Assembly: GCA_040757175.1 (NCBI GenBank)
Contig: JBFLXM010000032.1
Span: forward strand, 7,448 to 71,447
Direction of reading: 5' to 3'
Length of the DNA stretch: 64,000 nucleotides
Source of the DNA: Thermodesulfobacteriota bacterium
GTDB taxonomy: Bacteria > Desulfobacterota > Desulfobaccia > Desulfobaccales > 0-14-0-80-60-11
Shown: positions 7,757 to 55,797 of the stretch, in pieces
How positions within the stretch are numbered: the first letter of the stretch is position 1
Layout: each line of letters starts with the position of its first letter
Notes under the pieces: model-generated
What the model saw: the letters and a program-made list of their open reading frames with translations, nothing else
The model's database searches: none
What the model was told of the DNA's origin: nothing
Position numbers and translations under genes: made by a program

Positions 7757-7784
7757 CGGTTTTCCGTTTTCCGTTTTCCGTTGG
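7757..7784. repeat. Heptamer tandem array (TTTTCCG-type, about 3.5 units)
   Basis: cggttttccgttttccgttttccgtt lies directly after the rubredoxin stop codon. Confidence 0.9.
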
Positions 7785-7864
7785 AAAGGCGTTGGCTCAA
7801 TAGGCAGGGAGAATTAAGATAAACCTGTTTATCGTGTGGTTAAATAATATCAAGGCATGGGAAT

Positions 7865-8596
7865 ATGGCCTTCATGGCTCTGAACAACCAAGACAAAAGC
7901 CGGCAGAATAACGCCCTGAAAAAACCCTTTTGGCGGGAATATGGCGAAGCTCTGTTCATCGCCCTGGTGCTGGCCCTGGTCATCCGGGCCTTCGTGGTCC
8001 AGGCCTTCTCCATTCCCTCCGGCTCCATGATCCCCACCCTCCTGGTGGGGGATTACCTGTTGGTGAACAAATTCAGTTACGGCATCCGCAACCCCTTCTC
8101 CAACAAGGTCTTGGTCCCCACCTGGAAACCCCAGCGGGGGGACGTGGCGGTCTTCATCTTCCCCCAGGACCCTTCCAAAGACTATATCAAGAGGCTTATC
8201 GGGCTGCCGGGAGACCGAGTGCAGATCATCAACAAGAAAGTCTTGATCAACGGCCAACCTTATGAGGTTCCCCAGGCCCGTTTTGCCGATAAAGAACTCA
8301 TTCCCGCCAACCAATCCCCCCGGGACAACTTCGGGCCGGTGGTGGTGCCCAAAGACTCCTATTTCTTCATGGGGGACAACCGGGACCAGAGTTATGACAG
8401 CCGGTTCTGGGGCTTCGTGCCCATGGACGATCTCCGGGGCAAGGCTGTGGTTATTTACTTTTCCTGGGAGGGTTCGGACCACCAACCCCTCTACCTGGCC
8501 TTCCTGGGCGGCCTCAAGGGCTTGATCACCCACCAGGCCTGGGATGCCGGCTATTTCAAGGTGCGCTGGGGCCGCATCGGCAAGTTGATCCATTAA
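7865..8596 (+). CDS. lepB: Signal peptidase I
   Basis: IPSGSMIPTL (catalytic Ser box), KRLIGLPGD and GDNRDQSYDSRFWGFVP boxes. Confidence 0.92.
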   Translation: MAFMALNNQDKSRQNNALKKPFWREYGEALFIALVLALVIRAFVVQAFSIPSGSMIPTLLVGDYLLVNKFSYGIRNPFSNKVLVPTWKPQRGDVAVFIFPQDPSKDYIKRLIGLPGDRVQIINKKVLINGQPYEVPQARFADKELIPANQSPRDNFGPVVVPKDSYFFMGDNRDQSYDSRFWGFVPMDDLRGKAVVIYFSWEGSDHQPLYLAFLGGLKGLITHQAWDAGYFKVRWGRIGKLIH

Positions 8597-8712
8597 AAGC
8601 AGTTTTCGGTTTTTTTTGAACACTTCCTTTTTCTGCATCGACAGGATAAAAGATTGTTATTGGAGTTTATTCAACAAAAATTAGGAAGTGCCCCTATTTT
8701 AAGAAGGTACTA

Positions 8713-9147
8713 ATGCCCATCCCCCGCCTGACCGTTATTACTCTTGGGGTCACTGACTTAGCGAAGGCCACCAGGTTCTACGAGACTATCTTCGGGATTG
8801 GCCCTTACCCGGGGTATGAAGGGGTCTCGTTTTTCGAGCTCCCCGGCGTCTGGCTGACGCTCTATCCGGTCGATAAGTTGGCCGCAGACATCTCGCCGCA
8901 ATTGTCTCCCGACGGCAGTGGTTTCAGTGGCATAACCCTGGCGTACAACGCCCGCAGCAAGGACGAAGTCATTGCCATTTTCGAGGAAGTCAGGGCTGCG
9001 GGCGCGTCTATCGTTAAACCCCCGCAAGACACTTTCTGGGGTGGCTTTAGCGGCTACTTCGCCGACCTGGATGGCTATTACTGGGAAGTGGTTTGGGGGC
9101 CGATGTTTGACTTTGCGCCTGACGGGTCTTTACGCTTTAAAAAGTAG
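8713..9147 (+). CDS. VOC/glyoxalase-family protein
   Basis: 144 aa with a glyoxalase-like beta-alpha-beta pattern (ITLGVTDLAKATRFYE..GYFADLDGYYWEV). Confidence 0.7.
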   Translation: MPIPRLTVITLGVTDLAKATRFYETIFGIGPYPGYEGVSFFELPGVWLTLYPVDKLAADISPQLSPDGSGFSGITLAYNARSKDEVIAIFEEVRAAGASIVKPPQDTFWGGFSGYFADLDGYYWEVVWGPMFDFAPDGSLRFKK

Positions 9148-9155
9148 CGGGAAGA

Positions 9156-10187
9156 ATGCCATCGGCCCACCGTGATAAACCATTGTGGCCAGGTTTATCC
9201 CTCCCCGCCATGAAGTTCAGAAATACACTTATACATATGCCTTTTGTCTTTTCCAACCGAAAACGGCAAACCAAAAATCGAAATCACCTATGGACCTTGC
9301 CACTATTGATGTTTTTATTGGCGGCCGCCTGTGGCCCTGCCTCTGCCCCTATAATTGTCTTTTGTTCCCCGGATTCGCCCCGGATGCGCCAGGCCATCGC
9401 CGGGCTGGAAGCGTCTTTGGGGCAGGGCCGGCTGGAAGTGGTCTGCATCCCGGAGTTCGGCGGCCAGGGAGACGAGGAGTTGCGCCGCCTGCGGAGCCGC
9501 AACCCCCGGCTGCTGGTAGTCCTGGGCACCCCGGCCCTGATCCGGGTGGCCCCGGTGGAAAAACGGACGCCCGTGGTCTTCGCGTTGGTGGCCAATCCCT
9601 ATTTCACCGGCGCCGCGTATGAACCGGAGCATCCGGAGATTCACCAGGGAAATATCACCGGCGTCTTCTCCCCGCCGCCCCTGGACACGGCTTTGGAGCA
9701 GGGGGCCGCGCTCTTGGGCGCGGGTTCCTGGGGCCTGCTCTACGACCCCAATGACGGGGTGGCGGTGGAGCTCCAAAAGCGCTTCCGGCAAGAGGCCCCG
9801 GGCTATGGCCTGAAGCCCTTGACTGCCGCCAGCGCCGCGGCCGCCACGGATCGCCAGGGACTGGAGAAGCTGCTGGCCCAGGGGGCCAGGGTGATTTATC
9901 TCCCCCCCACTCCCGGCGCGGCCCGGTATGCCCCCCTGCTGCTGGAGTGGGGCAGGAAACAAAAGGTGATGGTGGTGAGCAGCCACCCGGAGTTTCACCA
10001 GGGCGCGATTCTCTGGGTGGCCCTGGATTACCGCCGCCTGGGGGAGGAGGCCGGGGCCCTGGCTCGGCGGGTCCTGAACGGGGAGGCCCCGGACAAAATT
10101 CCCATTGCGGAAAAGGCCCCCCTTAAGGTACAAGTGGACGAGCGGCTGCTCCGGAAATGGAGCGGGTATCCTGCAGCCCGAAAATAA
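9156..10187 (+). CDS. ABC transporter substrate-binding lipoprotein (ABC_sub_bind-like family)
   Basis: Lipobox-like LLAAAC. The central VVFALVANPY..QGNITGVFSPPP resembles the conserved NvTGv segment of that family. The true start is probably an internal Met. Confidence 0.55.
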   Translation: MPSAHRDKPLWPGLSLPAMKFRNTLIHMPFVFSNRKRQTKNRNHLWTLPLLMFLLAAACGPASAPIIVFCSPDSPRMRQAIAGLEASLGQGRLEVVCIPEFGGQGDEELRRLRSRNPRLLVVLGTPALIRVAPVEKRTPVVFALVANPYFTGAAYEPEHPEIHQGNITGVFSPPPLDTALEQGAALLGAGSWGLLYDPNDGVAVELQKRFRQEAPGYGLKPLTAASAAAATDRQGLEKLLAQGARVIYLPPTPGAARYAPLLLEWGRKQKVMVVSSHPEFHQGAILWVALDYRRLGEEAGALARRVLNGEAPDKIPIAEKAPLKVQVDERLLRKWSGYPAARK

Positions 10188-10243
10188 ATGATTTCTCACG
10201 CAAAGACGCCAAGGCGCAAAGACGCAAGAATTTTTCTTTCCTC

Positions 10244-10266
10244 GTTCCCAAGCTGCGCTTGGGAAC
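10244..10266. repeat. REP-type hairpin (GTTCCCAAGC..GCTTGGGAAC family)
   Basis: gttcccaagctgcgcttgggaac, followed by a related cccgaagcttggcttcgg hairpin. The same family recurs at 42661-42683 and 55347-55369. Confidence 0.75.
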
Positions 10267-10304
10267 GCACTTGGACCCGAAGCTTGGCTTCGGAACATAA
10301 CCGA

Positions 10305-10391
10305 ATGAGAACCCGGTATAAGATTAACGATGCAGGTCAAATATATTTCATCACTTGCACTATTGTTGAATGGATTCCAGTATACCCATAA
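10305..10391 (+). pseudogene. N-terminal remnant of an IS200/RAYT-like (Y1) transposase
   Basis: The 28-codon ORF MRTRYKINDAGQIYFITCTIVEWIPVYP* matches the conserved N-terminal strand of the YKF..g.YF.T...v.W..vF transposase family and then stops. It is preceded by REP hairpins and an 8-nt repeat (acgcaaag acgccaag gcgcaaag acgcaaga, about 10195-10230). Confidence 0.5.
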
Positions 10392-10406
10392 TCAAATTCA
10401 AGAATA

Positions 10407-10434
10407 GGAACTTTGAACCTGGAACCTGGAACTT
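10407..10434. repeat. Heptamer tandem array (GGAACCT/CTGGAAC type)
   Basis: ggaactttgaacctggaacctggaactt lies just upstream of the first M16 peptidase start. Confidence 0.85.
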
Positions 10435-10451
10435 CTCTCTGGAGGACTTGC

Positions 10452-11780
10452 ATGACCCTTGCTCCCAAGTTGGACCCCGCGGTCTGGCAGCCGGAAATCG
10501 AGATAATCCCCTACCGGCTGGATAACGGCCTGCAATTATTCGTGCTCCCCGACCACCGGGTGCCCATGGTCTCTTTGCAGCTCCACTACCACGTGGGCTC
10601 CCGGTTTGAGCTCCAGGGCATCACCGGCATCAGCCACCTCTTCGAGCACCTGATGTTCCGGGGGTCGGAGACCCTGGGCCCCGAGGAATTCTCCCGCATC
10701 CTCCAGGCCAAGGGCGGGGAGATCAACGCCTTCACCACCCGGGACCACACCTCCTACTTCGAAAACCTGCCCGCGGAGCACCTGGAACTGGGTCTGCAAT
10801 TGGAGGCCGACCGCCTGGCCAACCTGAAGCTGAACGATGAGAACTTCCAGACCGAACGCCAGGTGGTCATCAGCGAGCGGAAGCTGCGCTCCGTGGACAG
10901 TCCCTTCGGCCTGGTCCTGGAGCAGCTCTTTGCCGGGGCCTTCACCCAGCACCCCTACCAGTGGCCGGTGATCGGCTGGGACCAGGACCTCAAGCGCATG
11001 AGCCTGCGGGAATGCCTGTCCTATTACCAGACCTATTATCACCCCGGCAACCTGACGGTGGTCGTCGCCGGGGACGCGGAGCCGGACGCGGCCCGGGACC
11101 TGGTGGACCGATACCTGGGGAAGCTCCCCAGCCCGGGGCCCCCCCGCCCTCTCATCGTCCAGGAGCCCCCCCAGCGGGGGGAGCGCCGCGCGGTCCTCAA
11201 GAAGGTGTCCCAGGTGGAGGCCCTGTTCGCGGGGTTTCATATCGTGGGCATGGATCATCCGGACATCTATCCCCTCTCTCTTTTGGCCATCATCCTCTCC
11301 GGGGGCAAATCCTCCCGCTTCTACCAGGAGTTCGTGCGGCCGGGCCGGGCGGTGGAGATGGAGGCGGAGATCGCGCCGCCCCCCTGGACCAGCGAAGACC
11401 CGGACCTGATGGTCATGACCGCCATTGCCGCGCCCGGGCAACCTCTGCCCCAACTGGAAGAAGACCTGTGGGCCGCGCTGGCCCGTCTCCAGAAAGACGG
11501 CGCACAGCCGGGGGAACTGGCCCGGGCCCAGAAACTTCTCCGGGCCCAGGCCGCCCGGGGCTTGTCCCAGAATTTCTACCGGGGCCTGCTGGTGGGCCTC
11601 TTCCACCTGAAGACCGGGGACGCCGGCCGGGTCAACCAACTGCTTAAACTCTACGAGGCGGTCACCCTGGAAGACGTGCAGCGGGTGGCCCAACAGTACC
11701 TCCGGGAAGACAACCGCACCGTCGTCACCCTGAAACCGGTCTCTCCGGAAGAGAGCCAGGCTTTGGGGGAGATGGTTTGA
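10452..11780 (+). CDS. M16 (pitrilysin/insulinase) family zinc peptidase, catalytic-type subunit
   Basis: HxxEH zinc motif (ISHLFEHLMFRGS) and M16 architecture. ATG at 10452 after GGAGGA; the track's TTG start lies inside the heptamer array. Confidence 0.85.
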   Translation: MTLAPKLDPAVWQPEIEIIPYRLDNGLQLFVLPDHRVPMVSLQLHYHVGSRFELQGITGISHLFEHLMFRGSETLGPEEFSRILQAKGGEINAFTTRDHTSYFENLPAEHLELGLQLEADRLANLKLNDENFQTERQVVISERKLRSVDSPFGLVLEQLFAGAFTQHPYQWPVIGWDQDLKRMSLRECLSYYQTYYHPGNLTVVVAGDAEPDAARDLVDRYLGKLPSPGPPRPLIVQEPPQRGERRAVLKKVSQVEALFAGFHIVGMDHPDIYPLSLLAIILSGGKSSRFYQEFVRPGRAVEMEAEIAPPPWTSEDPDLMVMTAIAAPGQPLPQLEEDLWAALARLQKDGAQPGELARAQKLLRAQAARGLSQNFYRGLLVGLFHLKTGDAGRVNQLLKLYEAVTLEDVQRVAQQYLREDNRTVVTLKPVSPEESQALGEMV

Positions 11781-11783
11781 GAC

Positions 11784-11861
11784 GAGTTCCGAGTTCCAGG
11801 TTCCCAGTTCCAAGTTAAACTTCGAACTCGAACCTGGAATCTGGAACTTGGAACTTGCAAC
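11784..11861. repeat. Inverted pair of heptamer arrays (GTTCCAG-type arm / CTGGAAC-type arm)
   Basis: gagttccgagttccaggttcccagttccaagtt followed by aacttcgaactcgaacctggaatctggaacttggaacttgcaac. The two arms are reverse complements in repeat unit and fill the gap between the two M16 genes. Confidence 0.85.
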
Positions 11862-11880
11862 TTTAAAAAGGATTAACCAC

Positions 11881-13188
11881 ATGGCGGAGTATATTCCAGA
11901 GATTCATCAAGCAGTCTTGCCTGGAGGGATGCGTCTTTTAGGGGTGGAGTACGACCGGGTCCCCTGGCTGAGCCTCACTTTTATGGCCAAACGGGGGGCG
12001 GAGGCCGATCCTCCGGCCAAGGGGGGAGTGGCGGATTGGACCGCGGAGTTTCTCACCCTGGGCACCCGCAAACGGACCCAGTTGCAGTTGGCCACGGACA
12101 TCGAGGCCCGGGGCGCGGCCCTGTCCGCCCGGGGCGGCTGGGATGCCACCCTGGTAAGCCTGGAAGGGCTGGCCGAGGATCTCCCGGAACTCATGGCCAC
12201 CCTGGCGGAGGTGGTGCAGACCCCTGCGTTTCCGGCAGAAGAGTTTCCCCTGCTGCAGGACCGGCGGGCCGCGGAGTTGGCCCATCTCCTGGATGACCCC
12301 CGGGAATTGGCCAACCGCCGCTTTACCCGTCTCTTTTTCGGGGACGCGGCCTATGGCCATCCGGTGACCGGGGACCTGGAGACCCTGGAGGCCATCGGCC
12401 TGGAGGACCTGAAGAAATTCTACCACCGGGAATTCACCCCCGGGGACTCCACCCTGGTGGTGGTGGGCATGGCGCCATTTGCCCGGATGCAAGAGGAAGC
12501 CGGAAAACTCTGGGGGGGCTGGCAGGGCGGCGGCCCGGCCAGCGCCCCTTACACCCAGGCTCCGGAGCGGCTCTGCTCCCCCGGCGTCTACCTCCTGGAC
12601 CGCCCGGACCTGACCCAGAGCGAGATCCGGCTGGGGCACCTGGGCCTGCCCCGGTCCCATCCGGATTACTTTCCCTTAAGGCTGGTGAACTATATTTTGG
12701 GTGAAGGGGGGTTTTCCTCCCGGCTGATGACCCGCATCCGCTCGGATTTGGGGTGCACTTACGGCATTCGCAGCACCTTCCACTTCCGCCGGGCCCCCGG
12801 TCCTTTTGTGATCTCCACCTTCACCCCCGGGGCCCAGACCGCGCTGGTGGTCAAGGAGATCAAGGCGGTGGTGCAAGAGGTCATGGAAAACGGCATTACT
12901 GAACAGGAACTGGCCGAAGCACAAAGTTACTATGTGGGGCACTTCCCCTTGGGTCTGGAGACCCCCCGGCACCTGGGCAGCCGGGTGGTGTCCATGGATC
13001 TTTATAACCTGGGGTGGGATTATCTGCGGCGCTACCGGGAACGGATCCAGGAAGTTACCCTGAGTGCGGCCCAGGAAGCGGCCCGGAAGCATCTGCAACC
13101 GGACGCTTTGGTGGCGCTGGTGGTGGGGCCTGCGGCCCAATGCGCCAAAGACCTGGAAGGCTTGGGGCCCTTGGAGATGATTAGCTGA
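11881..13188 (+). CDS. M16 family peptidase, second (non-HxxEH) subunit
   Basis: 436 aa. It pairs with the upstream M16 gene, has the M16 C-terminal domain pattern and no HxxEH motif. ATG at 11881. Confidence 0.8.
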   Translation: MAEYIPEIHQAVLPGGMRLLGVEYDRVPWLSLTFMAKRGAEADPPAKGGVADWTAEFLTLGTRKRTQLQLATDIEARGAALSARGGWDATLVSLEGLAEDLPELMATLAEVVQTPAFPAEEFPLLQDRRAAELAHLLDDPRELANRRFTRLFFGDAAYGHPVTGDLETLEAIGLEDLKKFYHREFTPGDSTLVVVGMAPFARMQEEAGKLWGGWQGGGPASAPYTQAPERLCSPGVYLLDRPDLTQSEIRLGHLGLPRSHPDYFPLRLVNYILGEGGFSSRLMTRIRSDLGCTYGIRSTFHFRRAPGPFVISTFTPGAQTALVVKEIKAVVQEVMENGITEQELAEAQSYYVGHFPLGLETPRHLGSRVVSMDLYNLGWDYLRRYRERIQEVTLSAAQEAARKHLQPDALVALVVGPAAQCAKDLEGLGPLEMIS

Positions 13189-13209
13189 AATTAGGTCTAT
13201 ATTTTTTAG

Positions 13210-13238
13210 TTGACAAATCTTTTGCGATGTTATGAGAT
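13210..13238 (+). promoter_or_regulatory. Candidate sigma70-type promoter of dsrA
   Basis: TTGACA (13210-13215), a 17-nt spacer, then TGAGAT, about 70 nt upstream of the dsrA ATG in an AT-rich gap. Confidence 0.4.
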
Positions 13239-22298: not shown

Positions 22299-22414
22299 AC
22301 CACAGAGGCACAAAGAGCACAGAGAAACACAGAGAGATATTTTTAGCCTTGGCGGCCAGGCCGCCAAGGCAAATTTTTTCTCTGTGGCCCTTTGTGCTCT
22401 CTGTGTCTTTGTGG
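22299..22414. repeat. Composite element: CACAGAG-type heptamer arm, GC hairpin, inverted CTCTGTG-type arm
   Basis: Left arm accacagaggcacaaagagcacagagaaacacagagag. Centre gccttggcggccaggccgccaaggc. Right arm ctctgtggccctttgtgctctctgtgtctttgtgg. A sister copy lies at 37992-38112. Confidence 0.85.
22346..22379 (+). terminator. Likely secA intrinsic terminator (the central hairpin of the composite element)
   Basis: Perfect 12-bp palindrome GCCTTGGCGGCC a GGCCGCCAAGGC, followed by aaaTTTTTT. Confidence 0.6.
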
Positions 22415-33481: not shown

Positions 33482-33545
33482 GTAGGGTGGGCACGGCCCA
33501 CCAGCAGACTGCATTCTTAAAAAGGTGGGCCATGCCCACCCTACA
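33482..33545. repeat. Inverted pair of REP hairpins (GTAGGGTGGGCA..GCCCACC family)
   Basis: gtagggtgggcacggcccacc .. ggtgggccatgcccaccctaca. Family members are also at 52881-52903 and 55211-55233. Confidence 0.8.
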
Positions 33546-34056: not shown

Positions 34057-35075
<1,019 letters not shown>

Positions 35076-37991: not shown

Positions 37992-38112
37992 ACCACGGAG
38001 ACACAGGGGACACAGGGATTCACAGAGGATAAAAAATTGAGGTCCGGCGGTTCACCGCCGGACCTCAAATATTTTCTCTGTGGCCCTCTGTGCTCTCTGT
38101 GCCTCTGTGGTG
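37992..38112. repeat. Composite element, second copy: CACAGAG-type arm, GC hairpin, CTCTGTG-type arm
   Basis: Left arm accacggagacacaggggacacagggattcacagagg. Centre gaggtccggcggttcaccgccggacctc. The right arm ctctgtggccctctgtgctctctgtgcctctgtggtg is about 90 percent identical to the right arm at 22379-22414. It lies between convergent genes. Confidence 0.85.
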
Positions 38113-39965: not shown

Positions 39966-40048
39966 GTGGTCAGTGGCCAGTGGTCAGTAGTCAGTAAAAA
40001 ATAGGCTGCAATCTTTACTGACCACTGGCCACTGATCACTGCTCACTG
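39966..40048. repeat. Inverted pair of heptamer arrays (GGTCAGT-type arm / ACTGACC-type arm)
   Basis: gtggtcagtggccagtggtcagtagtcagta .. tactgaccactggccactgatcactgctcactg. It fills the glmU-glmS intergenic gap; the right arm ends 1 nt from the glmU stop. Confidence 0.88.
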
Positions 40049-40049: not shown

Positions 40050-41447
40050 CTATTCTTCCTTCTTCTTGCCGATGAGCCGCCGCTCCAGGTTTACCTGCCG
40101 GGCCCGGGAGATGCCCAGCTTGCCCGGAGGCACGTCCTTGGTGATGGTGGAGCCCGCGCCCACGTAGGCCCCGGCCCCGATGGTCACCGGGGCCACCAAG
40201 GAAGTATTGCTGCCGATGAAGGCCCCCTCTTCAATGGTGGTCTTATGCTTCCTGACGCCGTCGTAGTTGCAGGTAATGGTGCCCGCGCCCACGTTGGTGC
40301 CGGCCCCCACCTCCGCGTCCCCCAGATAGGTGAGATGCCCGGCCTTCACCCCTTCGTGGAGCACCGATTTTTTCACCTCCACGAAGTTGCCCACATGCAC
40401 CTTGGACCGGAGGTCGGCGCCAGGCCGCAGATGCGCAAAAGGACCCATATCAGACCCGGGCCCCAGGCGGCTCTGGTTGATGACGCAGCCCATCTTGATA
40501 TGGACCCCGTTTTCCAGAGTCGAGTCCACGATCTTCACGGTGGGCTCAATGATACAGTTTTCGCCGATAACTGTTTTTCCCTGGAGATAGACGTTGGGAT
40601 AGATCACCGTATCCCGGCCAATGGTCACCAGGGACTCGATATAGGTGGATTCGGGGTCTACCAAGGTGACCCCTTGGTCCATGTGCCGGGCGTTGATTTT
40701 CCGTTTCACGGTCTGGGTGGCCGCGGCCAGCTCGGCCCGGCTGTTGATGCCCATGAGGCTGTCCACGTCCGGGTCGATGAGGGCCTCCACGGCCCGACCC
40801 TGCGCCTTAGCGATGTGAATCAGGTCGGTGAGATAGATTTCCCCGGTGACCGGGCTCTTGGGGATTTTATCCAGCGCTTGCCGGAGAAATGGGGCGTCAA
40901 AGCTGTAAGCCCCGGTGTTGATCTCCCGGATGGATAGAATCTCTGGGCGGTCCTTAGAATCCTTGGACTGAAGCACCGCTCTCACCCGGCCCGCCTCATC
41001 CCGCACCACCCGGCCGTAGTGCAGGCCGTCCGGCAGCACCACGGTCTGAATGGTCACCGCGGCCTGGTGGTTTTTATGCAACCGCCGGAGTGCGCCGATG
41101 CTCTCCCCGGAGATCAAGGGCGCGTCGCCGCAGAGGACCATAACTTCTTGAGTTTCTTCAGGGACCGCAGCCATGGCCACCTGCACCGCGTGGCCGGTCC
41201 CCAACTGCGGCTCCTGGACCACGAAGCGCACCGGGTAATTCTTCAGGGCCTCCTGGACCTTCTCAGCGTGATAACCCACCACCACCAGGATATCGTCAAT
41301 TCCCAAATCGATAAGGGTATCCAGGAGGTAGGCGATCATGGGCCGGCCCAGGATTTGATGCAGGACCTTGGGCTGGCTGGATTTCATGCGGGTCCCCTGC
41401 CCCGCGGCCAGGATGACGGCGGTGATTTTGTCGGTCAACATCTCCAT
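40050..41447 (-). CDS. glmU: Bifunctional UDP-N-acetylglucosamine pyrophosphorylase / GlcN-1-P N-acetyltransferase
   Basis: AVILAAGQGTRMKS nucleotidyltransferase motif and C-terminal left-handed beta-helix hexapeptide repeats. Confidence 0.95.
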   Translation of the reverse strand: MEMLTDKITAVILAAGQGTRMKSSQPKVLHQILGRPMIAYLLDTLIDLGIDDILVVVGYHAEKVQEALKNYPVRFVVQEPQLGTGHAVQVAMAAVPEETQEVMVLCGDAPLISGESIGALRRLHKNHQAAVTIQTVVLPDGLHYGRVVRDEAGRVRAVLQSKDSKDRPEILSIREINTGAYSFDAPFLRQALDKIPKSPVTGEIYLTDLIHIAKAQGRAVEALIDPDVDSLMGINSRAELAAATQTVKRKINARHMDQGVTLVDPESTYIESLVTIGRDTVIYPNVYLQGKTVIGENCIIEPTVKIVDSTLENGVHIKMGCVINQSRLGPGSDMGPFAHLRPGADLRSKVHVGNFVEVKKSVLHEGVKAGHLTYLGDAEVGAGTNVGAGTITCNYDGVRKHKTTIEEGAFIGSNTSLVAPVTIGAGAYVGAGSTITKDVPPGKLGISRARQVNLERRLIGKKKEE

Positions 41448-42038: not shown

Positions 42039-42683
42039 GTAGGGTGCGTCTCACGCACCATTATTTTTTCTCATTCACCAAAACCAATATCCTTTATTTC
42101 TTCCTCATTAATGCCGCCCCAATCGGACGGATATATTCCCTTACCTACGAATCGATGAAAAGTTGAATAAGGCCATTCTATCACTCGATTCACATAACCA
42201 TGTTTCACGGGATTCCAATGAATATAATCCAGGTGCCTTTGTAAATCCAGTTCATCCCGGATGCAATGCTCCCAGAACCTTCTTTGCCAAAATGGACCCT
42301 CACCGCGATTACCGCGAGAACTGCTAACTGGCACCCTCATCCCTTCAAGAGAACCGCAACGCTTGCTTACGATTCGTTTAATAACAGCCCACCGGGAACC
42401 ATAATTGTCGTCATTTTCCGGCAAAGTCCAGATGGTATGAAGATGATCCGGCAATAACACCCAGGCTTCGATGGTGAAGGGCAAAGATTGGCGGACCTCT
42501 TGAATCCCCTCCCGCATGGCTGCCCGGACCTGATCGTGTGTCAGTATGGGTTGGCGGCCAAAGGTGACCACGGTAAAGAAATAGGTGCCGCCTTTTAATT
42601 TGGTTCGCCGATATTCAGGCATATTTATTGGTGCGTAAGACGCACCCTACAAGGACCCACTTCCCAAGCGCAGCTTGGGAACC
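42039..42683. mobile_element. RAYT gene bracketed by inverted REP hairpins (REP/RAYT unit)
   Basis: Left GTAGGGTGCGTCTCACGCACC (42039-42059). Right GGTGCGTAAGACGCACCCTAC (42630-42652) in inverse orientation, plus a GTTCCCAAGC-type hairpin (42661-42683). Confidence 0.8.
42071..42622 (-). CDS. REP-associated tyrosine transposase (RAYT, IS200/Y1 superfamily)
   Basis: HUH motif (LLPDHLHTIW), catalytic Tyr region (LDYIHWNPVKHGY), and an N-terminal GGTYFFTVVTFGRQP strand. Confidence 0.85.
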   Translation of the reverse strand: MPEYRRTKLKGGTYFFTVVTFGRQPILTHDQVRAAMREGIQEVRQSLPFTIEAWVLLPDHLHTIWTLPENDDNYGSRWAVIKRIVSKRCGSLEGMRVPVSSSRGNRGEGPFWQRRFWEHCIRDELDLQRHLDYIHWNPVKHGYVNRVIEWPYSTFHRFVGKGIYPSDWGGINEEEIKDIGFGE

Positions 42684-50140: not shown

Positions 50141-50821
50141 TTAAAGAACGTTTTCCGTTTTGCGTTTTCCGTTTTCCGTTAAGTATATCGTAACGAAATA
50201 GTCCCGGGCAAGGCGCTGGAGCTCCCAGCGGGCCCCGGTCCGGGAAAATATTTTTCTCAGGTCGGATTCGGAGTACAAGAACAGCTCGCAGCGCCGCTGA
50301 TAGCGCAGCCGCCGCTGCCAGGCCAGGAAGCCCCCGGCCGCGGGGAAGCTGAAGAAGGCCTTCTCCCGGGTGGCCTGGAGCACCTTGGCAATCACCGCCC
50401 CGGGCTCCCGCACGTAGTCCATGAAGCCCATGATGACAGCAAAATCAAAGGTTTCCGCAAGGGGATAGGTCAAAAAATCCGCGAGTTCAAAGCGGCAGCG
50501 GTCGGCCACCCCTGAGAGCTCCGCCCGGGCCCGGGCCAACTCCAGCATCCCCGGGGCAAAGTCCAGGCCCAGAACGAAGCCCGCGCCCCTCTGGGCCAGG
50601 GCCACGGCGTAGTGCCCGGGGCCGCAGCCCACGTCCAGCACCTTTTTCCCGGCGATGGGCGTGCAACCTGCCAGGGTCGCCTCATACCGCAGTTTCATGC
50701 TGCGGCGCCATAAGGTATTGATGAGCCGGTTCAGCCAGGTGTTCCGGGTCCCATAGATGGCGTCGAAGTCCCGAGCATAAGACTCAAAAAACTCCGAGGT
50801 GCGGTCTGCGGCTGCCGGCAT
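50141..50821 (-). CDS. Class I SAM-dependent methyltransferase
   Basis: Motif I VLDVGCGPGHYA. The last 14 codons (YLTENGKRKTENVL) are encoded by the heptamer array at 50149-50180. Confidence 0.75.
   Translation of the reverse strand: MPAAADRTSEFFESYARDFDAIYGTRNTWLNRLINTLWRRSMKLRYEATLAGCTPIAGKKVLDVGCGPGHYAVALAQRGAGFVLGLDFAPGMLELARARAELSGVADRCRFELADFLTYPLAETFDFAVIMGFMDYVREPGAVIAKVLQATREKAFFSFPAAGGFLAWQRRLRYQRRCELFLYSESDLRKIFSRTGARWELQRLARDYFVTIYLTENGKRKTENVL
50149..50180. repeat. Heptamer tandem array (CGTTTTC type)
   Basis: cgttttccgttttgcgttttccgttttccgtt. It overlaps the 3' end of the methyltransferase ORF and ends 9 nt from the rodA start. Confidence 0.9.
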
Positions 50822-50829
50822 GGGTAATA

Positions 50830-50848
50830 CCGTTTTTCGTTTTTCGTT
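50830..50848. repeat. Heptamer tandem array (CGTTTTT type, short)
   Basis: ccgtttttcgtttttcgtt, 9 nt upstream of the methyltransferase start. Confidence 0.8.
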
Positions 50849-50909
50849 AAAAAATATCTTATCAATAAGTTACATTACAAGCTTGTTTGTTTTAGACGTG
50901 AATTTGGCA

Positions 50910-51755
50910 TTAATCCTCTATCGAGTTCCCGAAGTCCGCCAGGAAACGGGCAAAGCTGGTAATGGGAAAATCTTTGAGAATCCGGCGGATTTTCCCCTCC
51001 ATGCTCTTGAGCCCCACGTAAGATTTGAACCGCCGCCTGAAATTCATGGGCAGGCGGGGATGGTCCGGGTCAATTTCCCGGGGATGGGCGTAAAAGACCG
51101 CGGGCCGGCCTTCTTGCAGCACCCGCCGGGTCATCAGCCGCACCAGGACATAAGGAAAGAGGCGGAGATAGCCGCCGCCGAAAAGACATATGGGCCTGCC
51201 GCCAACCGCCGTCACGGTGATGGGAAACTCCACCAGGGGTCCGGAGGGGGTCCTGATCCGATAAGGGCCATAGCGGTTCTGCCGCAGGCCCCCGTGCCCC
51301 CGGGCCGCGGGAAAAACGGAGGAATCGTACCCATAACCGGCCTTTACCAGCTCCTCAAAAAACCAGGGGGTGTCCTGGGTGACGGAGAACCCCGCGCCGC
51401 GATAGCCCCGGACCGGCAGGCCGCTGATATCCTCCAACAGCAGCCGGGCCCGGCGGGCGTCTTCATAAAACTCAGCCGGGCTCTGGTCATAAACCAGCCG
51501 GTGCCCGTAACCATGGGAGGCCACTTCGTGGCCCTGGGCCGCGGCTTCCCGCACCAGATGGGGAAAACGTTCCGCCACCCAGCCCAGGAAAAAGCAGGTA
51601 ACCCCCACCCCTGCCGCCGCCAACAGGTCCAGGAACCGCCGGAAGTTGGCCTCCACCCGGCTGGGGAGCCGGTCCCAATCGTCTAAGGCCGGTGCCCCAA
51701 CGTCCAGGATGTGAAACCAGTCCTCCACGTCCACGGTGAAGATAACGGGGATCAT
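50910..51755 (-). CDS. Polysaccharide deacetylase family protein
   Basis: IFTVDVEDWFH N-terminal block and NodB-like HGYGH histidines. Confidence 0.8.
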   Translation of the reverse strand: MIPVIFTVDVEDWFHILDVGAPALDDWDRLPSRVEANFRRFLDLLAAAGVGVTCFFLGWVAERFPHLVREAAAQGHEVASHGYGHRLVYDQSPAEFYEDARRARLLLEDISGLPVRGYRGAGFSVTQDTPWFFEELVKAGYGYDSSVFPAARGHGGLRQNRYGPYRIRTPSGPLVEFPITVTAVGGRPICLFGGGYLRLFPYVLVRLMTRRVLQEGRPAVFYAHPREIDPDHPRLPMNFRRRFKSYVGLKSMEGKIRRILKDFPITSFARFLADFGNSIED

Positions 51756-51760
51756 GAATA

Positions 51761-51784
51761 GGGGTCAGGGGTCAGGGGCCAGGG
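51761..51784. repeat. Heptamer tandem array (GGGGTCA type)
   Basis: ggggtcaggggtcaggggccaggg. It starts 6 nt upstream of the deacetylase ATG and lies downstream of the MNT gene. Confidence 0.88.
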
Positions 51785-51820
51785 AGGTCCCGATACGGAT
51801 GAGACCCGAAGCCTATACTT

Positions 51821-52141
51821 TCAGTTTTCGGCATACTGCACTACTGCCTCTTGCAAAACTTTATCTCGAAAATAACGGCTCAAACATTGAGGGGTGTTGA
51901 GATCTACTTTTCTGCCAAGAATTGCCGATAACTCATCTTCCATGGTGAAAAATGATAAGCCGGGGATATGATCGGGGTCGAATTCCACCAGCACGTCGAT
52001 ATCGCTATCTGCACGGAAATCCGGGCGCAGGACAGACCCAAAGACCGCCAATTTCTTGATATGATACCTCCGGCAAAATTCGGCAATCTTTTCTTCGGGA
52101 AAGGGAACCTGAAGCTTCGATTTCTCGCTGGTCTGTTTCAT
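51821..52141 (-). CDS. Minimal nucleotidyltransferase (MNT-type, HEPN/MNT TA-like), no partner seen
   Basis: GS..DxD motif ([24 protein letters not shown]). No DUF86/HEPN ORF is adjacent. Confidence 0.8.
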
Positions 52142-52158
52142 AATTAAGCGGTTTTTTA

Positions 52159-52201
52159 CTGACCCCTGATCCCTGACCCCTGACCCCTGGCCCCTGACCC
52201 C
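52159..52201. repeat. Heptamer tandem array (CTGACCC type, 6 units), inverted relative to 51761-51784
   Basis: ctgacccctgatccctgacccctgacccctggcccctgacccc, between the recR stop and the MNT start. Confidence 0.9.
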
Positions 52202-52205
52202 TTCT

Positions 52206-52814
52206 CTACGCCTCCACCCGATGGCTCAACGCCTCTTTCAAGGTCTGCTGGTCGGTGTATTTGATGTCTCCCCCCATGGGCAGGCCGTAGGCGATGCGGC
52301 TCACCTTCACGCCCAGGGGCTTCAACTCCTGGCCCAGGTACGTGGTAGTGGCTTCCCCTTCCAGGCTGGGGTTGAGGGCCAGGATCACCTCCTGGATGCC
52401 CTCCGACCGGACCCGCTCCAGGAGTTCCCGGAGGCGCAGATCATCCGGCCCCACCCCTTCCAGGGGAGAAAGCAGGCCCCCCAGGACATGGTACTGGCCC
52501 CGAAACCACCCCACCTTCTCCAGGGCCAGCAGATCCCCGGGGTCCGCCACCACCAGGAGTTGGCCGGTGCGCCGCTCCGGATCGGCGCACAAGGGGCAGA
52601 GGTCCGCGTCCGCAAACGCGAAGCAGCGGCGGCAGAGGCGGATTTTTTCTTTTAATTCCAGCAACGCCTGGGACAGTTCTCCCACTTCCCCCCGGGGGGC
52701 CCGGAGCAGGTACATGGCCATCCGGGCCGCGGTCTTTTCGCCGATTCCCGGCCATTTGCTCAAAGCAGCGATGACGCGTCGCAACGCCGCGGGATATGCG
52801 CCTTTGGACATCAA
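52206..52814 (-). CDS. recR: Recombination protein RecR
   Basis: HhH ([16 protein letters not shown]), Cys4 zinc finger ([16 protein letters not shown]) and Toprim domain. Confidence 0.95.
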
Positions 52815-52880
52815 TTTTCCTTAATTTATTTTAAGTTAAAGGGGTAATCGAAATCGGGGTCAATAGAATCCCAAGGAATT

Positions 52881-52934
52881 GGTGGGCAGTGCCCACCCTA
52901 CATTTCTGACCCCTGATCCCTGGCCCCTGCCCCC
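52881..52934. repeat. REP hairpin followed by a TGACCCC-type heptamer array
   Basis: ggtgggcagtgcccaccctacat followed by ctgacccctgatccctggcccctgccccc, between ybaB and recR. Confidence 0.85.
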
Positions 52935-52938
52935 TACG

Positions 52939-53250
52939 TTAAAACATTCCCGGTATCTGCAAGCCGCCGGTCAGCTTCGCCATTTCCTGGGCCATCATTT
53001 CCCGGGCCCGGTTCAGGGCTTCGTTGACCGCGGCCAGGATCAGGTCCTGGAGCATGTCCACGTCTTCGGGATTGGCCACTTCCGGGTCGATGCGCAGGCT
53101 CACCAGTTCCAGGCGGCCGTTGACCACGGCTTCCACCATGCCGCCGCCGGCTTGGGCGCTCACCGTGCGGTTGCCCACCTCCGCCTGCATTTCCGCCATC
53201 TTGGATTGCAGTTTCTGGGCCTGTTTCATCAGGCCCGCCAGGTTCTTCAC
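52939..53250 (-). CDS. ybaB: Nucleoid-associated protein YbaB/EbfC
   Basis: ..NLAGLMKQAQKLQSKMAEMQ.. and C-terminal GGLQIPGMF. The GTG at 53250 overlaps the dnaX stop (GTGA). Confidence 0.85.
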   Translation of the reverse strand: MKNLAGLMKQAQKLQSKMAEMQAEVGNRTVSAQAGGGMVEAVVNGRLELVSLRIDPEVANPEDVDMLQDLILAAVNEALNRAREMMAQEMAKLTGGLQIPGMF

Positions 53251-54905
53251 TGGGGTTCCTCCTTCCCGCCAGGGCCGGCCCATTGTCCCCCGAAAATCTC
53301 TAAAGCCTGCTGCTTGAGGGTTTCCAGGTCCACCGGCTTTTTGGCGGCAGCCGGGGCTTTCCCGGCCTTCTTGGCCTCCTGGGCCTTGACTTCCAGGGAA
53401 TACTCAGGGCCGAAAAAGGCCCGGGCCAGTTCCTGCAAGCGGGCCTCGTGGCGCGGCCCCGCGGCGTTCCAGGAACGCCCCGCCTCCACCTGCAGGCGAT
53501 GGTCGGCCATGCCCAACAGGCGGCACTTGGAAATCTTGCCGTAGAGGGGGCCGTCGCCGTGCTCCTGGACATAGTTTAAGAATTGCTGCCACCTGGCTTC
53601 CAGATCCCCTTCAGCCCCGGAGACCGGCGGGGTGGGGGGCGAAGATGCGGGGACGTCTGGGTGGGGTGCCGGGGGATCGGGCGCCGGGGAGGCCGCGGCT
53701 GCGGTTACCGGCGCCACGGCTGCCTCAGGGGCCGGGGCCACCTTTCGTCGGGCCCCGGGACCCAGGCGCTTTTCCAGGTCCTCCAGGCGGGCCAGCCAGA
53801 CGCTCACCGGCTGCAGCGGCTCCAGGTGGATCAGACGGAGGAGGAGCACCTCCAGGGCCAGCCGGGGCTGGGGAGCCCGCTTCAGCTCCTCTTCCCCCTG
53901 GAGCAGCACGCTGAGCAGGTTCTGGAGATGGACCGGGGGAGTCTGGCTGGCAAGTTGGGCGATCTCTTCAAACTCCTGGTCGGCCACGGCCACCAGGTGC
54001 CGGGCCTCGGGGTGCAGCCCGGCCAGGAGCAGGTGCCGGGCGTATAAAGTCAAATCCTGGTAAAAGCGCTGCAAATCGTGGCCCTGGTTATAAAGGTCGT
54101 CGATCAACTCCAGGAGCGCCGGTCCCTCGCGCTGGATAATAGCCTGCAAAGCCTTGAGAAGGGACCCCCGCTCCGTGACCCCCAGGATGCGGGCGATTTC
54201 CCCGGCCGTGATCTTCTCGCCCCCAAAAGTCACCACCTGGTCCAGGAACCCCTGGGCGTCCCGGAGGCCCCCTTCTGCCTCCCGGGCGATCAGGGCCAGG
54301 CCCTCGGGGTCGATCTGCCAGCCTTCCTGGCGGGCCAGCTTCTCCAACTGCCCCTGGATCAGGGCCGTGGGAATGCGCCGGAAATCGTAGCGCTGGCAGC
54401 GGGAGAGGATGGTGGCCGGCACCTTGTGGGGCTCGGTGGTGGCCAGGACAAAGACCGCGTGGGCCGGGGGCTCTTCCAGGGTCTTCAACAGGGCGTTGAA
54501 GGCCTCCTTGGTGAGCATGTGCACTTCGTCGATGATATAGACCTTGTATTGGCCGTGGGTGGGGAGATACTTGATCTTCTCCCGGAGGTCCCGGACCTCG
54601 TCGATGCCCCGGTTGGAGGCGCCGTCGATTTCCAGGACGTCCAGGGAGGAGCCGCCGGTGATCTCCCGGCAGGCCTGGCACTGGTTGCAGGGGTGGGGGG
54701 TGGGCCCTTCCTGGCAGTTCAGGGCCTTGGCCAGGATGCGGGCCACCGAGGTCTTGCCCACGCCCCGGGGGCCGCTGAACAAAAAGGCATGGGCGATGCG
54801 GCCCTGGGTGATGGCGTTTTGCAGGGTGCGGGTGATGGGCTCCTGGCCCACCACTTCCTCAAAGTTTTGGGGACGCCATTTCCGGGCCAGGACTTGGTAG
54901 GTCAT
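53247..54905 (-). CDS. dnaX: DNA polymerase III gamma/tau subunit
   Basis: MTYQVLARKWRPQNFEEVVGQE.., Walker A GPRGVGKTS, zinc module CNQCQAC, DEVHML. Confidence 0.95.
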   Translation of the reverse strand: MTYQVLARKWRPQNFEEVVGQEPITRTLQNAITQGRIAHAFLFSGPRGVGKTSVARILAKALNCQEGPTPHPCNQCQACREITGGSSLDVLEIDGASNRGIDEVRDLREKIKYLPTHGQYKVYIIDEVHMLTKEAFNALLKTLEEPPAHAVFVLATTEPHKVPATILSRCQRYDFRRIPTALIQGQLEKLARQEGWQIDPEGLALIAREAEGGLRDAQGFLDQVVTFGGEKITAGEIARILGVTERGSLLKALQAIIQREGPALLELIDDLYNQGHDLQRFYQDLTLYARHLLLAGLHPEARHLVAVADQEFEEIAQLASQTPPVHLQNLLSVLLQGEEELKRAPQPRLALEVLLLRLIHLEPLQPVSVWLARLEDLEKRLGPGARRKVAPAPEAAVAPVTAAAASPAPDPPAPHPDVPASSPPTPPVSGAEGDLEARWQQFLNYVQEHGDGPLYGKISKCRLLGMADHRLQVEAGRSWNAAGPRHEARLQELARAFFGPEYSLEVKAQEAKKAGKAPAAAKKPVDLETLKQQALEIFGGQWAGPGGKEEPQ

Positions 54906-54913
54906 GAAAGGAT

Positions 54914-55051
54914 CGTTTTTCGTATTCCGTTTTTCGTTTTGCGTATTAAAACAATAACATATCTTGAGCGAAATTTGTTGGATCTTCTTCGAAATATCTC
55001 AAGCGGGCAAAAGTGATTTTTTACGAAAAACGCAAAACGAAAAACGCAAAA
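54914..55051. repeat. Inverted pair of heptamer arrays (CGTTTTT-type arm / ACGAAAA-type arm) around a roughly 75-nt centre
   Basis: cgtttttcgtattccgtttttcgttttgcgtatt .. acgaaaaacgcaaaacgaaaaacgcaaaacc, between the dnaX start and the tRNA-Ser 3' end. Confidence 0.88.
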
Positions 55052-55061
55052 CCGCCTTTAG

Positions 55062-55154
55062 TGGCGGAGAGAGAGGGATTCGAACCCTCGGAGCACTTAT
55101 TAGGCACTCACACGATTTCCAATCGTGCCCCTTCAGCCTCTCGGGCATCTCTCC
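55062..55154 (-). tRNA. tRNA-Ser (anticodon GGA), class II with a long variable arm, CCA encoded
   Basis: The reverse complement reads GGAGAGATGCCCGAGAGGCTGAAGGGGCACGATTGGAAATCGTGTGAGTGCCTAATAAGTGCTCCGAGGGTTCGAATCCCTCTCTCTCCGCCA. Anticodon arm CACGA-TTGGAAA-TCGTG; T-arm GAGGG-TTCGAAT-CCCTC. Confidence 0.9.
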
Positions 55155-55210
55155 GCAAGGATGAACTTGGATTATCACACGGCGGCACAGGCGTCTCGCC
55201 TGCGCAGTAT

Positions 55211-55543
55211 GGTGGGCCATGCCCACCCTACAACTGCTCTGAAAATGTCCTTCGTAGGGCGCGTCTCACGCGCCATAATGGTGCGTAGGACGCACCCTAC
55301 AACAATTTTCATCCTTCTGGGTGTTCCCTTGGAACATGAATTGCTCGTTCCCAAGCTTGGCTTGGGAACGGTGATTATCCGTCCAAGCTTTGCTTGGACA
55401 CCTTATATTATATACCCGGCTTTAATCCGCTTAACCAGAAAATTGACAATAAAGGGTTGGAGCGCACCAAAATGGCGGGCCAGGCCCGCCCCACACCGCT
55501 GTCCACAAATAACTAAGCAGCGGGCGAGGACGCCCGCCCTACG
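55211..55543. repeat. Cluster of REP-type hairpins from at least four families (BIME-like)
   Basis: The cluster contains seven hairpins: ggtgggccatgcccaccctac (55211-), gtagggcgcgtctcacgcgcc (55254-), ggtgcgtaggacgcaccctac (55280-), gttcccaagcttggcttgggaac (55347-), gtccaagctttgcttggac (55381-), ggcgggccaggcccgcc (55474-) and gcgggcgaggacgcccgccctac (55520-). Confidence 0.8.
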
Positions 55544-55560
55544 CCCCCGGCTCCTGCCTC

Positions 55561-55737
55561 CTATTTCTCCGGTTTGGGCACCAGGACCTCGTAATCCTTC
55601 CTCTTCTCCGGCGGCAGGTCGTTATATTCCTCTTCGGTGATAATACAATCCAGGGGGAGGGAGCCCATGTCCTCCCGGTAGGTGTTCTTCTCCCCCAGGT
55701 AGATTTCGCAATTTTTATTGATATAGGTGAGTCCCAT
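55561..55737 (-). CDS. Hypothetical small protein (58 aa; below the track cutoff)
   Basis: My translation is MGLTYINKNCEIYLGEKNTYREDMGSLPLDCIITEEEYNDLPPEKRKDYEVLVPKPEK*. GGAGG lies 6 nt upstream of the ATG. No family recognised. Confidence 0.45.
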   Translation of the reverse strand: MGLTYINKNCEIYLGEKNTYREDMGSLPLDCIITEEEYNDLPPEKRKDYEVLVPKPEK

Positions 55738-55764
55738 GCGGACCTCCGGTGGTTTCCGGTCTTT

Positions 55765-55797
55765 TACTGATCACTGACCACTGACCACTGATCACTG
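55765..55797. repeat. Heptamer tandem array (ACTGACC type)
   Basis: tactgatcactgaccactgaccactgatcactg, immediately left of the tRNA-fragment/att candidate. Confidence 0.88.

Follow-up and report, generated by a model that had tools for sequence, protein, structure and literature searches.

Why does a bacterial genome set short tandem arrays of seven-nucleotide units at the ends of so many of its genes, and do such arrays act on the genes beside them? The question is raised by a 64,000-nt stretch of contig JBFLXM010000032.1 from a Thermodesulfobacteriota bacterium (assembly GCA_040757175.1), here called the window, in which an earlier note made from the sequence alone had described heptamer arrays. 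We find that these arrays gain and lose whole units, that they persist at fixed sites while their units drift, and that they form complementary arms in a fixed order beside gene ends. With moderate confidence, we read them as heptanucleotide simple-sequence repeats akin to the short tandemly repeated repetitive (STRR) sequences of cyanobacteria, a trait of a Desulfobaccales-related clade, which would act in cis on transcripts.

Period, placement and polarity of the arrays

Arrays were sought in the window with a lag scan (at least 17 matches in 21 positions, periods 4–12), with a stricter extension scan (periods 5–15) controlled by Markov shuffles, and with Tandem Repeats Finder (TRF). The lag scan returned 14 arrays at period 7 and none or one at any other period. 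All but one of the 14 lie between genes, in spite of a coding fraction of ~85%; the exception occupies the last ~13 codons of one open reading frame (ORF). The stricter scan retained nine arrays at period 7 and none at other periods, and the shuffles yielded no period-7 arrays. This is the behavior of long simple-sequence repeats (LSSRs; Mrazek, 2007, by way of PMC4679880 and PMC4692102): units of 5–11 nt lie head to tail in arrays longer than chance predicts (14 at period 7, none in shuffles), units whose length is not a multiple of three are kept to non-coding DNA, and whole units are gained and lost, as seen below between strains L082 and L083. Heptanucleotide repeats are the commonest LSSR class in many bacterial genomes, and a polymerase-related slippage bias has been proposed, according to the summary of Mrazek (2007) given in PMC4679880.

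By TRF and by direct reading, the sequences listed in the earlier note are as it described them. Its count of three to six tandem copies at 14 or more loci stands in part: there are 14 period-7 arrays, but the one at 50830-50848 has only 2.6 copies, and two loci assigned to a CACAGAG family are not heptamer arrays. Its division into five discrete families falls. CACAGAG does not have period 7, and the rest pass into one another by degrees: because a single array in the relative L081 passes through several unit types (AAACCAA to AAACTGA to CTACTGA to CTACTGG), the families cannot be called discrete.

Two sets of other genomes supplied the background. A DnaX scan of species-representative genomes found no relative above 51% identity, the nearest being Syntrophales and other 'delta' metagenome-assembled genomes (MAGs) at 39–48%; 80 such unrelated dnaX loci contain 10 strict period-7 arrays in 1.18 Mb. 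A SecA metagenome scan found only three relatives (L090-L092, 81–83% identity), which we used as a contrast, while 77 secA loci at no more than 66% identity hold 30 lag-scan arrays in 1.0 Mb, 22 of these within three loci. Searched against Rfam 15 at gathering score, the window matches only tRNA-Ser, with no match at the arrays. Its SecA and GlmS, looked up by exact sequence, gave no record. The arrays are real and beyond chance. Nor are they assembly artefacts, because the same sites are occupied in independent NCBI, ENA and JGI assemblies, which also confirms their recurrence outside the window.

Along the direction of transcription, the usual order is the gene end, a G/T-rich left arm (CAGTGGT, GGGGTCA, CGTTTTC or GAGTTCC, for example), a loop, a right arm that is the A/C-rich reverse complement of the left, a Shine-Dalgarno sequence (SD) or none, and the start codon. 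Left arms begin 0 to about 6 nt past a stop codon or tRNA 3′ end, and right arms end 2–29 nt 5′ of the next gene start. The placement at gene boundaries reported in the earlier note was upheld when compared with uniform placement of each array within its own gap: arrays lie nearer to gene ends than predicted (P ~0.001), and in that test all but the array at 7757-7784 lie within 27 nt of a boundary. Once a 53-aa rubredoxin ORF recognised through relatives is counted (7593-7754, + strand), this array too begins 2 nt past a stop. The loop is as short as 2 nt (recR-rodA in L082), and elsewhere holds a REP (repetitive extragenic palindrome), whole inserted genes or, between tRNA-Ser and dnaX in every relative read there, a conserved promoter-bearing spacer. 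Arrays are missing from gaps with conserved promoter- or terminator-like sequence (rodA-atpF, downstream of atpC, and downstream of M16b, the second of two M16 peptidase genes called M16a and M16b here). Paired arrays lack the T-run that follows the stem of an intrinsic terminator, with the exceptions of the array after tRNA-Ser(GGA) and the centers of the CACAGAG composites described below.

Right upstream of starts, the arrays stand in one orientation, commonly with no SD, as at dnaX, rodA and the deacetylase gene, an arrangement like that of published TAACTGA repeats. No SD is recognisable for dnaX in the window, L081, L085, L088 or L171, and an A-rich array lies directly before its start (window 54903-54946). 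Of 23 complementary pairs separated by 400 nt or less, 19 have the more G/T-rich arm on the left (hand count). The same order surrounds tRNA genes, where A-rich arrays end 4–5 nt before tRNA-Ser(CGA) and G/T-rich arrays begin right after tRNA 3′ ends; hence polarity is not tied to translation alone, and translation-specific causes, whether avoidance of SD-like or start-like sequence or translational coupling, are weakened. Avoidance of Rho was set aside as a cause by reasoning only, since the CGTTTTC/GAAAACG family does not fit it.

Orthologous sites in relatives and strains

Ten relatives or strains (L081-L089, L170-L172 and L173-L175), reached through RecR (81–95% identity) and M16a (90–92% identity), supplied syntenic loci. 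RecR homologs of 78–95% identity are plentiful, and those at 78–81% are named Desulfobaccales or Desulfobacca acetoxidans by their source. On the strength of these matches we place the window in a Desulfobaccales-related lineage, and the sulfate-reducer affiliation supposed in the earlier note fits.

Among the closer relatives every member has arrays, all of period 7 except in L171, which has three more at period 8. Array sites are conserved between M16a and M16b, between glmU and glmS, between ybaB and recR, downstream of recR, upstream of rodA, and from tRNA-Ser to dnaX, where the pair is present in every relative read (L081, L085/L086, L088, L171, L172); the unit sequences and copy numbers at these orthologous sites differ. 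L081 (MAG GCA_049322315.1) has 16 arrays in 20.6 kb, with one right arm of ~30 copies. At the ybaB-recR site, where others have period 7, L171 carries an inverted pair of period 8 (9846-9990, GCGGTTTA / TAAACCGC).

Comparison of near-identical strains catches unit turnover directly. Over 11.4 kb, L082 and L083 share 99.83% identity, and just two indels separate them, each a 7-nt unit within an array; a third exact 7-nt array indel separates L083 from L084. These data divide the earlier note's suggestion of a shared mechanism rather than random slippage: the non-random placement points to a shared constraint, but strains 99.8% identical differ by exactly the whole-unit steps that slippage gives. 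Occupancy varies as well. The array at 7757-7784 has no counterpart in L173 or L175, the one at 10407-10434 has four copies in the window, two in L175 and none in L173, and L088 has one array in 18 kb. No period-7 array was found in the 33 kb of the secA-site relatives L090-L092. Because L088 has one array and L090-L092 have none, arrays are dispensable.

The hairpin potential that the earlier note ascribed to inverted pairs was borne out by folding. Arms pair over 21–65 bp (23–65 bp for period-7 pairs), with z-scores of -3.8 to -7.3 in the sense and -2.8 to -9.1 in the antisense orientation, the tRNA-Ser to dnaX pair being the weakest. In a hand comparison of energies, folding of arm to arm is better on the sense strand in nine cases and on the antisense in four, with two ties.

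The two arms of a pair change together between relatives. From recR to rodA, left and right units are GGGGTCA/TGACCCC in the window, GTGGTCA/TGACCAC in L082 and GCGGTCA/TGACCGC in L085; the arms orthologous to window 52159-52201 read GTGGTCA in L082, GCKGTCA in L085 and CAGTGGY in L081. At glmU-glmS, CAGTGGT/ACCACTG in the window corresponds to AAGTAAT/ATTACTT in L082, which shares this orthologous pair with L083. From tRNA-Ser to dnaX, the window has CGTTTTT/AAAAACG, L085 has CTGTTTT/AAAACAG, and L088 and L171 have CGGTTTT/AAAACCG. Between M16a and M16b, GTTCC/GGAAC in the window is GTTCAA/TTGAAC in L173 and L175, and a consensus hairpin from three species has 35 pairs, of which 5 are changed on both sides. 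Such concerted change could reflect selection for pairing or homogenisation between arms. A further trend is weak and confined to the A/C-rich orientation: 13 of 25 A/C-rich units (hand count) have no predicted self-structure, as compared to 31% of all heptamers.

Arrays also turn up well outside this lineage. In L097, an unrelated metagenome contig whose SecA is 66% identical, two ~800-nt gaps (2430-3203 and 5219-6017) are filled with arrays from stop to start; there are up to 26 copies and several units, with complementary sets 2.6 kb apart. Further period-7 arrays lie in unrelated MAG or metagenome loci (L002 2293-2382, just 3′ of dnaX as a pair; L012 2492-2545; L145 4705-7214; L103 1260-1786), some of them inverted pairs beside gene ends. 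Because these four unrelated loci carry arrays, proneness to them comes up sporadically across lineages.

The window's arrays and the elements around them

The genes that adjoin the arrays are housekeeping genes (rubredoxin/lepB, two M16 peptidases, fur/znuA, glmU/glmS, rodA, recR/ybaB/dnaX and tRNA-Ser). Two single arrays are of the G/T-rich type that follows gene ends: 3.4 copies of CGTTTTC at 7757-7784, behind the rubredoxin ORF, and 4.6 copies of GGTTTTC at 34084-34118, 27 nt past the fur stop. One single array is of the before-start type, with 3.7 copies of GGAACYT at 10407-10434 ending 17 nt 5′ of the M16a start codon (10452). The inverted pair between M16a and M16b comprises a left arm of 4.6 GAGTTCC-type copies (11784-11816) that begins 3 nt past the M16a stop and a right arm of five to six GGAACTY-type copies (11825-11863) that ends 19 nt 5′ of the M16b ATG (11883). 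In the glmU-glmS pair, the glmU-side arm (40017-40048; ACTGACC on the + strand, CAGTGRN in mRNA sense) lies 1 nt from the glmU stop (40050-40052), and the glmS-side arm (39966-39996; GTGGTCA on the + strand, TGACCAC in mRNA sense) ends 16 nt upstream of the glmS ATG (39949, − strand), with an SD between.

The remaining arrays cluster from rodA to the tRNA-Ser genes, and their units are given in mRNA sense. Six copies of GGGGTCA (52159-52201) lie 4 nt past the recR stop (52206-52208); the partner arm, 3.5 copies of TGACCCC (GGGGTCA on the + strand) at 51761-51784, lies 5 nt upstream of the deacetylase ATG (51755), with the nucleotidyltransferase gene between the two arms. A short array, 2.6 copies of AAAAACG at 50830-50848, lies 8 nt upstream of the methyltransferase ATG (50821), and a single array of 4.6 copies of GAAAACG (50149-50180) ends 8 nt upstream of the rodA ATG (50140, − strand), a promoter-like site lying just upstream of it (50211-50182, − strand). 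This last array is the one that falls within the final ~13 codons of an ORF, that of the methyltransferase (50141-50821). The methyltransferase ORF runs through the array before a TAA stop that abuts the rodA ATG (50141-50180); its C-terminus is therefore array-encoded. Past the ybaB stop (52939-52941) by 4 nt lies a single array of four copies of GGGGNCA (52906-52934), adjoined by a classical REP at 52881-52901. The G-quadruplex (G4) sequence pattern, at least four runs of at least three G with short loops, is present in the GGGGTCA arrays 51761-51784, 52159-52201 and 52906-52934 and in no other unit type.

At dnaX, an arm of 4.6 AAAAACG-type copies (54914-54946) lies 8 nt upstream of the ATG (54905) without an SD. 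Its partner, 4.3 CGTTTTK-type copies at 55023-55051, lies 10 nt past the 3′ end of tRNA-Ser(GGA) (55062) and provides the T-run of a terminator-like hairpin, CCGCCACTAAAGGCGG-TTTTGCG. The last array, a single one of 4.6 copies of CAGTGRT read in − sense (55765-55797), follows the 3′ end of a tRNA-Ser(CGA) fragment (55804-55835) by 6 nt and precedes a conserved 58-aa ORF by 27 nt; in L081, nine copies of GTGGTCA stand directly 3′ of an intact tRNA-Ser(CGA). The 58-aa ORF (55561-55737, − strand) lies between the two tRNA-Ser genes and is kept in L081, L085 and L172, with a 59-aa ORF in L171; the relatives' copies have no Pfam match on record.

As the earlier note had stated, several arrays create false N-terminal extensions of ORFs: glmS is called at 639 as compared to a real 609 aa, argJ at 411 as compared to 393, and M16a at 455 as compared to 442. 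In L172, a gene caller set the dnaX start upstream of its array. Because arrays corrupt gene calls in this way, annotators should mask them.

The CACAGAG loci, taken in the earlier note for a heptamer family, are ruled out as such, their motifs lying 8–10 nt apart and TRF assigning periods of 17 and 9. Each is instead a composite palindrome of ~115 nt in which runs of A and T border an inner G+C-rich hairpin. One lies in the secA-argJ gap (22299-22414), its outer arms bearing CACARAG motifs, and a second copy lies between a convergent PF0610-like ORF and glmS (37992-38112); the two share their outer arms, with CACARAG four times per arm, and differ in their inner hairpins. Judged by sequence, their centers resemble bidirectional terminators. 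L091 has a related composite at the secA-argJ site, 3′ of secA (2990-3071), and L092 has only the argJ-proximal arm (~6500-6600); heptamer arrays are absent from both.

A link between the arrays and a RAYT gene, floated in the earlier note, was not supported. A RAYT-like ORF of the IS200-type Y1 transposases, with a weak Pfam match, does lie in the window (42071-42622, − strand), flanked by inverted REPs GTAGGGTGCGTCTCACGCACC (42039-42650). This REP family, GTAGGGTG-N9-CACC, has further copies at 33482/33524 (33482-33544), 52881-52901 and 55207-55300, single or as inverted pairs and once beside a heptamer array. Because the REPs that flank the RAYT-like ORF belong to another, classical family, the heptamers are a separate repeat system; the arrays themselves contain no conserved imperfect palindrome headed by GTAG. 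Another family of palindromes, GTTCCCAAGC-N4-GCTTGGGAAC, occurs in the window at ~10240-10300 and 55343-55399 and in L175 at 9062-10003. In L175 it flanks an ORF inserted between the SBP gene and M16a that is RAYT-like by eye, with no Pfam match on record, and the window retains only a deletion remnant of this insertion.

The recR-rodA gap (window 50141-52205) is a hot spot for inserted genes. It holds none in L082, L088 and L171, a 64-aa ORF in L085, an unrelated 227-aa ORF in L081, a nucleotidyltransferase gene and GmrSD in L172, genes for a nucleotidyltransferase, a deacetylase and a methyltransferase in the window, and these three plus a glycosylase gene in L170. Because the 227-aa gene of L081 is not homologous to the window's methyltransferase gene, the insertions are independent acquisitions. 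In each relative with intact arms, the inserted genes lie between the left and right array arms.

At the far end of the window, a low-GC (~48%) island (55804-64000) starts beside a tyrosine integrase gene (55842-57065, − strand) that abuts the 3′-terminal 32 nt of tRNA-Ser(CGA); relatives have an intact tRNA gene at the same site. Within the island lie an AbiEi/AbiEii pair (61914-63787) and a gene for a GT2 glycosyltransferase.

Known heptamer repeats and competing explanations

In cyanobacteria, heptamer repeats between genes have been known since 1990, and reports from Xanthomonas, Burkholderia, Beggiatoaceae and Geobacter followed; to our knowledge neither a function nor an explanation for the 7-nt period has been established. 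The STRR units that Mazel et al. described in 1990 are reportedly CCCCAGT, TTGGTCA and CAACAGT. As the earlier note had seen, the arrays resemble STRRs in their tandem 7-nt units, intergenic position and several unit types per genome, and the units as reported would also share a CAGT/GTCA core with GGTCAGT and GGGGTCA here. They differ in belonging to another phylum, in occurring mostly as inverted pairs that abut stop and start, and in their fixed polarity and co-varying arms. In the narrow sense of STRR1-3, those particular units in a cyanobacterial host, they are not STRRs: the host is Desulfobaccales-related, and the units are similar to the reported ones, not identical.

Similar in placement are the TAACTGA repeats known from marine Beggiatoaceae and from some Cyanobacteria and Bacteroidetes (MacGregor, 2015; PMC4679880), whose arrays of 2–6 copies stand directly upstream of starts in one orientation, often replacing the SD, and show 7-nt indels between Cyanothece strains (PMC4679880). 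Our arrays share the placement, the indels and an ACTGA core, relatives carrying ATACTGA, AAACTGA and CTACTGA. They differ in the variety of their units, in the complementary partner that follows the upstream gene end, and in their presence around tRNA genes, whereas BOGUAY has one favored unit and one inverted repeat among about 170 sets (PMC4679880). Neither the window nor any of 172 loci searched contains a TAACTGA tandem.

In Geobacter metallireducens, GGACCGG occurs four times in tandem at 49 loci (Aklujkar, 2009; PMC2700814), and eight pairs of MTYCTGA, five copies each on opposite strands, were described as 'class 3 global regulator sites', one such pair lying between proB and proA (PMC2700814). 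The novelty in 'delta' lineages that the earlier note had left open is thereby lost. Compared by description rather than by sequence, the likeness lies in tandem heptamers with a CTGA core and opposite-strand pairs at variable distance, there specific to one species within its genus; the Geobacter sites differ in being conserved, of fixed length, found by BLAST and read as IHF/HU-type binding sites, and copy-number variation, polarity and arm co-variation are not reported for them. G-rich heptamers, GGGAATC in Xanthomonas and GGGGAYT in Nostoc, are intergenic and lie near the upstream ORF end (Rehm, 2015; PMC4692102). Like ours, they are kept between the same genes while length and sequence vary by species, and some form inverted pairs; GGGGTCA has the G4 sequence pattern, but only that one unit type here would be G4-capable, most (CGTTTTC, GGAACCT, ACTGACC) being not. 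A Nostoc preprint reports that heptamer repeats affect recF and recO expression and gives no mechanism. REP, BIME and REPIN elements with their RAYTs are likewise extragenic, palindromic and species-specific, lie after stops or between cistrons and may form transcript hairpins, but each is one conserved palindrome headed by GTAG rather than a tandem of heptamers. Our literature search found no paper linking Desulfobacca with such repeats and no description for Desulfobaccales. What look new are the paired stop-to-start layout, the polarity including tRNA genes, the co-variation of arms, and the continuity of unit types.

A role in cis on transcripts could be played as follows. Units would be gained and lost by replication slippage, and the arms would be kept complementary by template switching between them, by selection for pairing, or by both. 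In read-through transcripts the arms would close the gap into a stem of 23–35 bp, longer where arms have expanded, which would bring the stop codon beside the following start; the stem may be a processing or stability element, or may couple or insulate neighboring cistrons. A transcript that begins within the loop, which is likely at dnaX and rodA, would carry the right arm alone, as an A/C-rich leader with little structure and often no SD. The 7-nt period is most likely a lineage-specific slippage bias, rather than sequence recognition, because unit sequences vary so widely.

Several observations weigh against this account. We infer the cis-RNA role from geometry, the folding of the arms shows no consistent sense preference, and a symmetric process at the DNA level accounts for the pairing just as well. 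Arms can differ greatly in copy number, one L081 gap having 4- and 14-copy arrays and an L081 right arm reaching ~30 copies, and between strains units change in one arm without compensation in the other. Some arrays are of recent origin or missing from close relatives (7757 and 10407; L170), the 18 kb of L088 and 33 kb of L090-L092 are nearly or wholly free of them, and this account does not explain the period of 7; L171 has its period-8 pair at ybaB-recR.

Much of this would suit a neutral or selfish by-product, in which a 7-nt slippage bias and template switching at quasi-palindromes generate arrays without function, and expansion proceeds until purifying selection on coding, SD, promoter or terminator sequence halts it, so that arrays come to abut gene ends. 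We regard this as possible, though less probable than a cis role. Whole-unit indels between near-identical strains, highly variable copy number with unbalanced arms (~30 copies in L081, 26 in L097), the ~800-nt gaps of L097 filled from stop to start, arrays absent or degenerate in close relatives, pairing with no sense-strand preference, one-arm changes between strains, and the fact that arrays are missing only where conserved regulatory sequence occupies the gap are all in keeping with it. However, an unfiltered process would not give the fixed order, 5′ G/T-rich and 3′ A/C-rich, that is seen in 19 of 23 adjacent pairs (hand count) and also in single arrays at starts, stops and tRNA ends; the sites keep their arrays over a RecR identity range of 81–95%; and arms remain complementary across 0.3–1.1 kb of inserted genes. 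A bolder idea, which we think doubtful, unites STRR, TAACTGA, Geobacter and Desulfobaccales repeats as a distinct operon punctuation: self-complementary brackets at gene boundaries whose 7-nt register and CTGA/CAGT core would come from a conserved trans-acting activity, such as a slippage-promoting replication or repair factor or a binding protein with a 7-nt register, whose stems would set stop beside start for coupling or RNase III-type processing, and whose fragile palindromes would capture foreign genes in their loops. The capture part fits, because five gene sets lie between the recR-rodA arms across relatives.

Binding sites for a trans-acting protein with a 7-nt register, be it one that binds DNA (a nucleoid-associated protein or global regulator) or one that binds RNA (of the cold-shock, S1 or CsrA-like kind), have been proposed before for TAACTGA repeats and for the Geobacter sites (PMC4679880, PMC2700814). 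Presence or absence of such a factor would fit the strict period and patchy distribution, and our arrays have ACTGA- and CAGT-type cores in common with the published TAACTGA and MTYCTGA repeats; but units differ widely within one genome (CGTTTTC, GGAACCT, ACTGACC, GGGGTCA) and at orthologous sites (CAGTGGT as compared to AAGTAAT), so a sequence-specific binding protein is unlikely, and no candidate gene was identified. We hold even less by contingency loci, in which unit number would switch or tune adjacent genes in the manner of phase variation. Strains are polymorphic in 7-nt steps and arrays do lie in 5′ leaders beside start codons, yet the neighbors are housekeeping genes (secA-side peptidases, glmS, rodA, recR, dnaX, tRNAs) rather than surface or host-interaction genes, half of the arrays follow gene ends, and arrays lie between stop and SD or start with none seen in a promoter spacer, the only reading frame touched being the last ~13 codons of the methyltransferase (50149-50180). 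Least probable are mobile elements, either RAYT-mobilised and REPIN-like or MITEs (miniature transposable elements with inverted repeats), or their footprints, together with assembly or chance artefacts. The inverted-repeat architecture, the genes inserted between arms in the recR-rodA gap and the RAYT-like gene in the window would speak for mobility; against it, that gene is flanked by a different, classical REP family, the arrays have no conserved internal sequence and no target duplication, and they evolve in place at orthologous sites, while artefacts are countered by agreement among independent assemblies and by shuffles that yield no arrays. We saw no identical copies at non-orthologous sites with flanking target duplications here, and a period derived from repeated transposon target-site duplication was set aside, there being no element or footprint to point to it.

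A role in cis on transcripts thus remains the reading we prefer. In this lineage the arrays are dense and regular and sequenced relatives are many; the rules of array layout can be put to a direct test. Should the arrays act on transcripts, operon organisation would have a widespread layer that has been overlooked; should they be neutral, they would provide a clean natural system for period-specific slippage and the homogenisation of quasi-palindromes.

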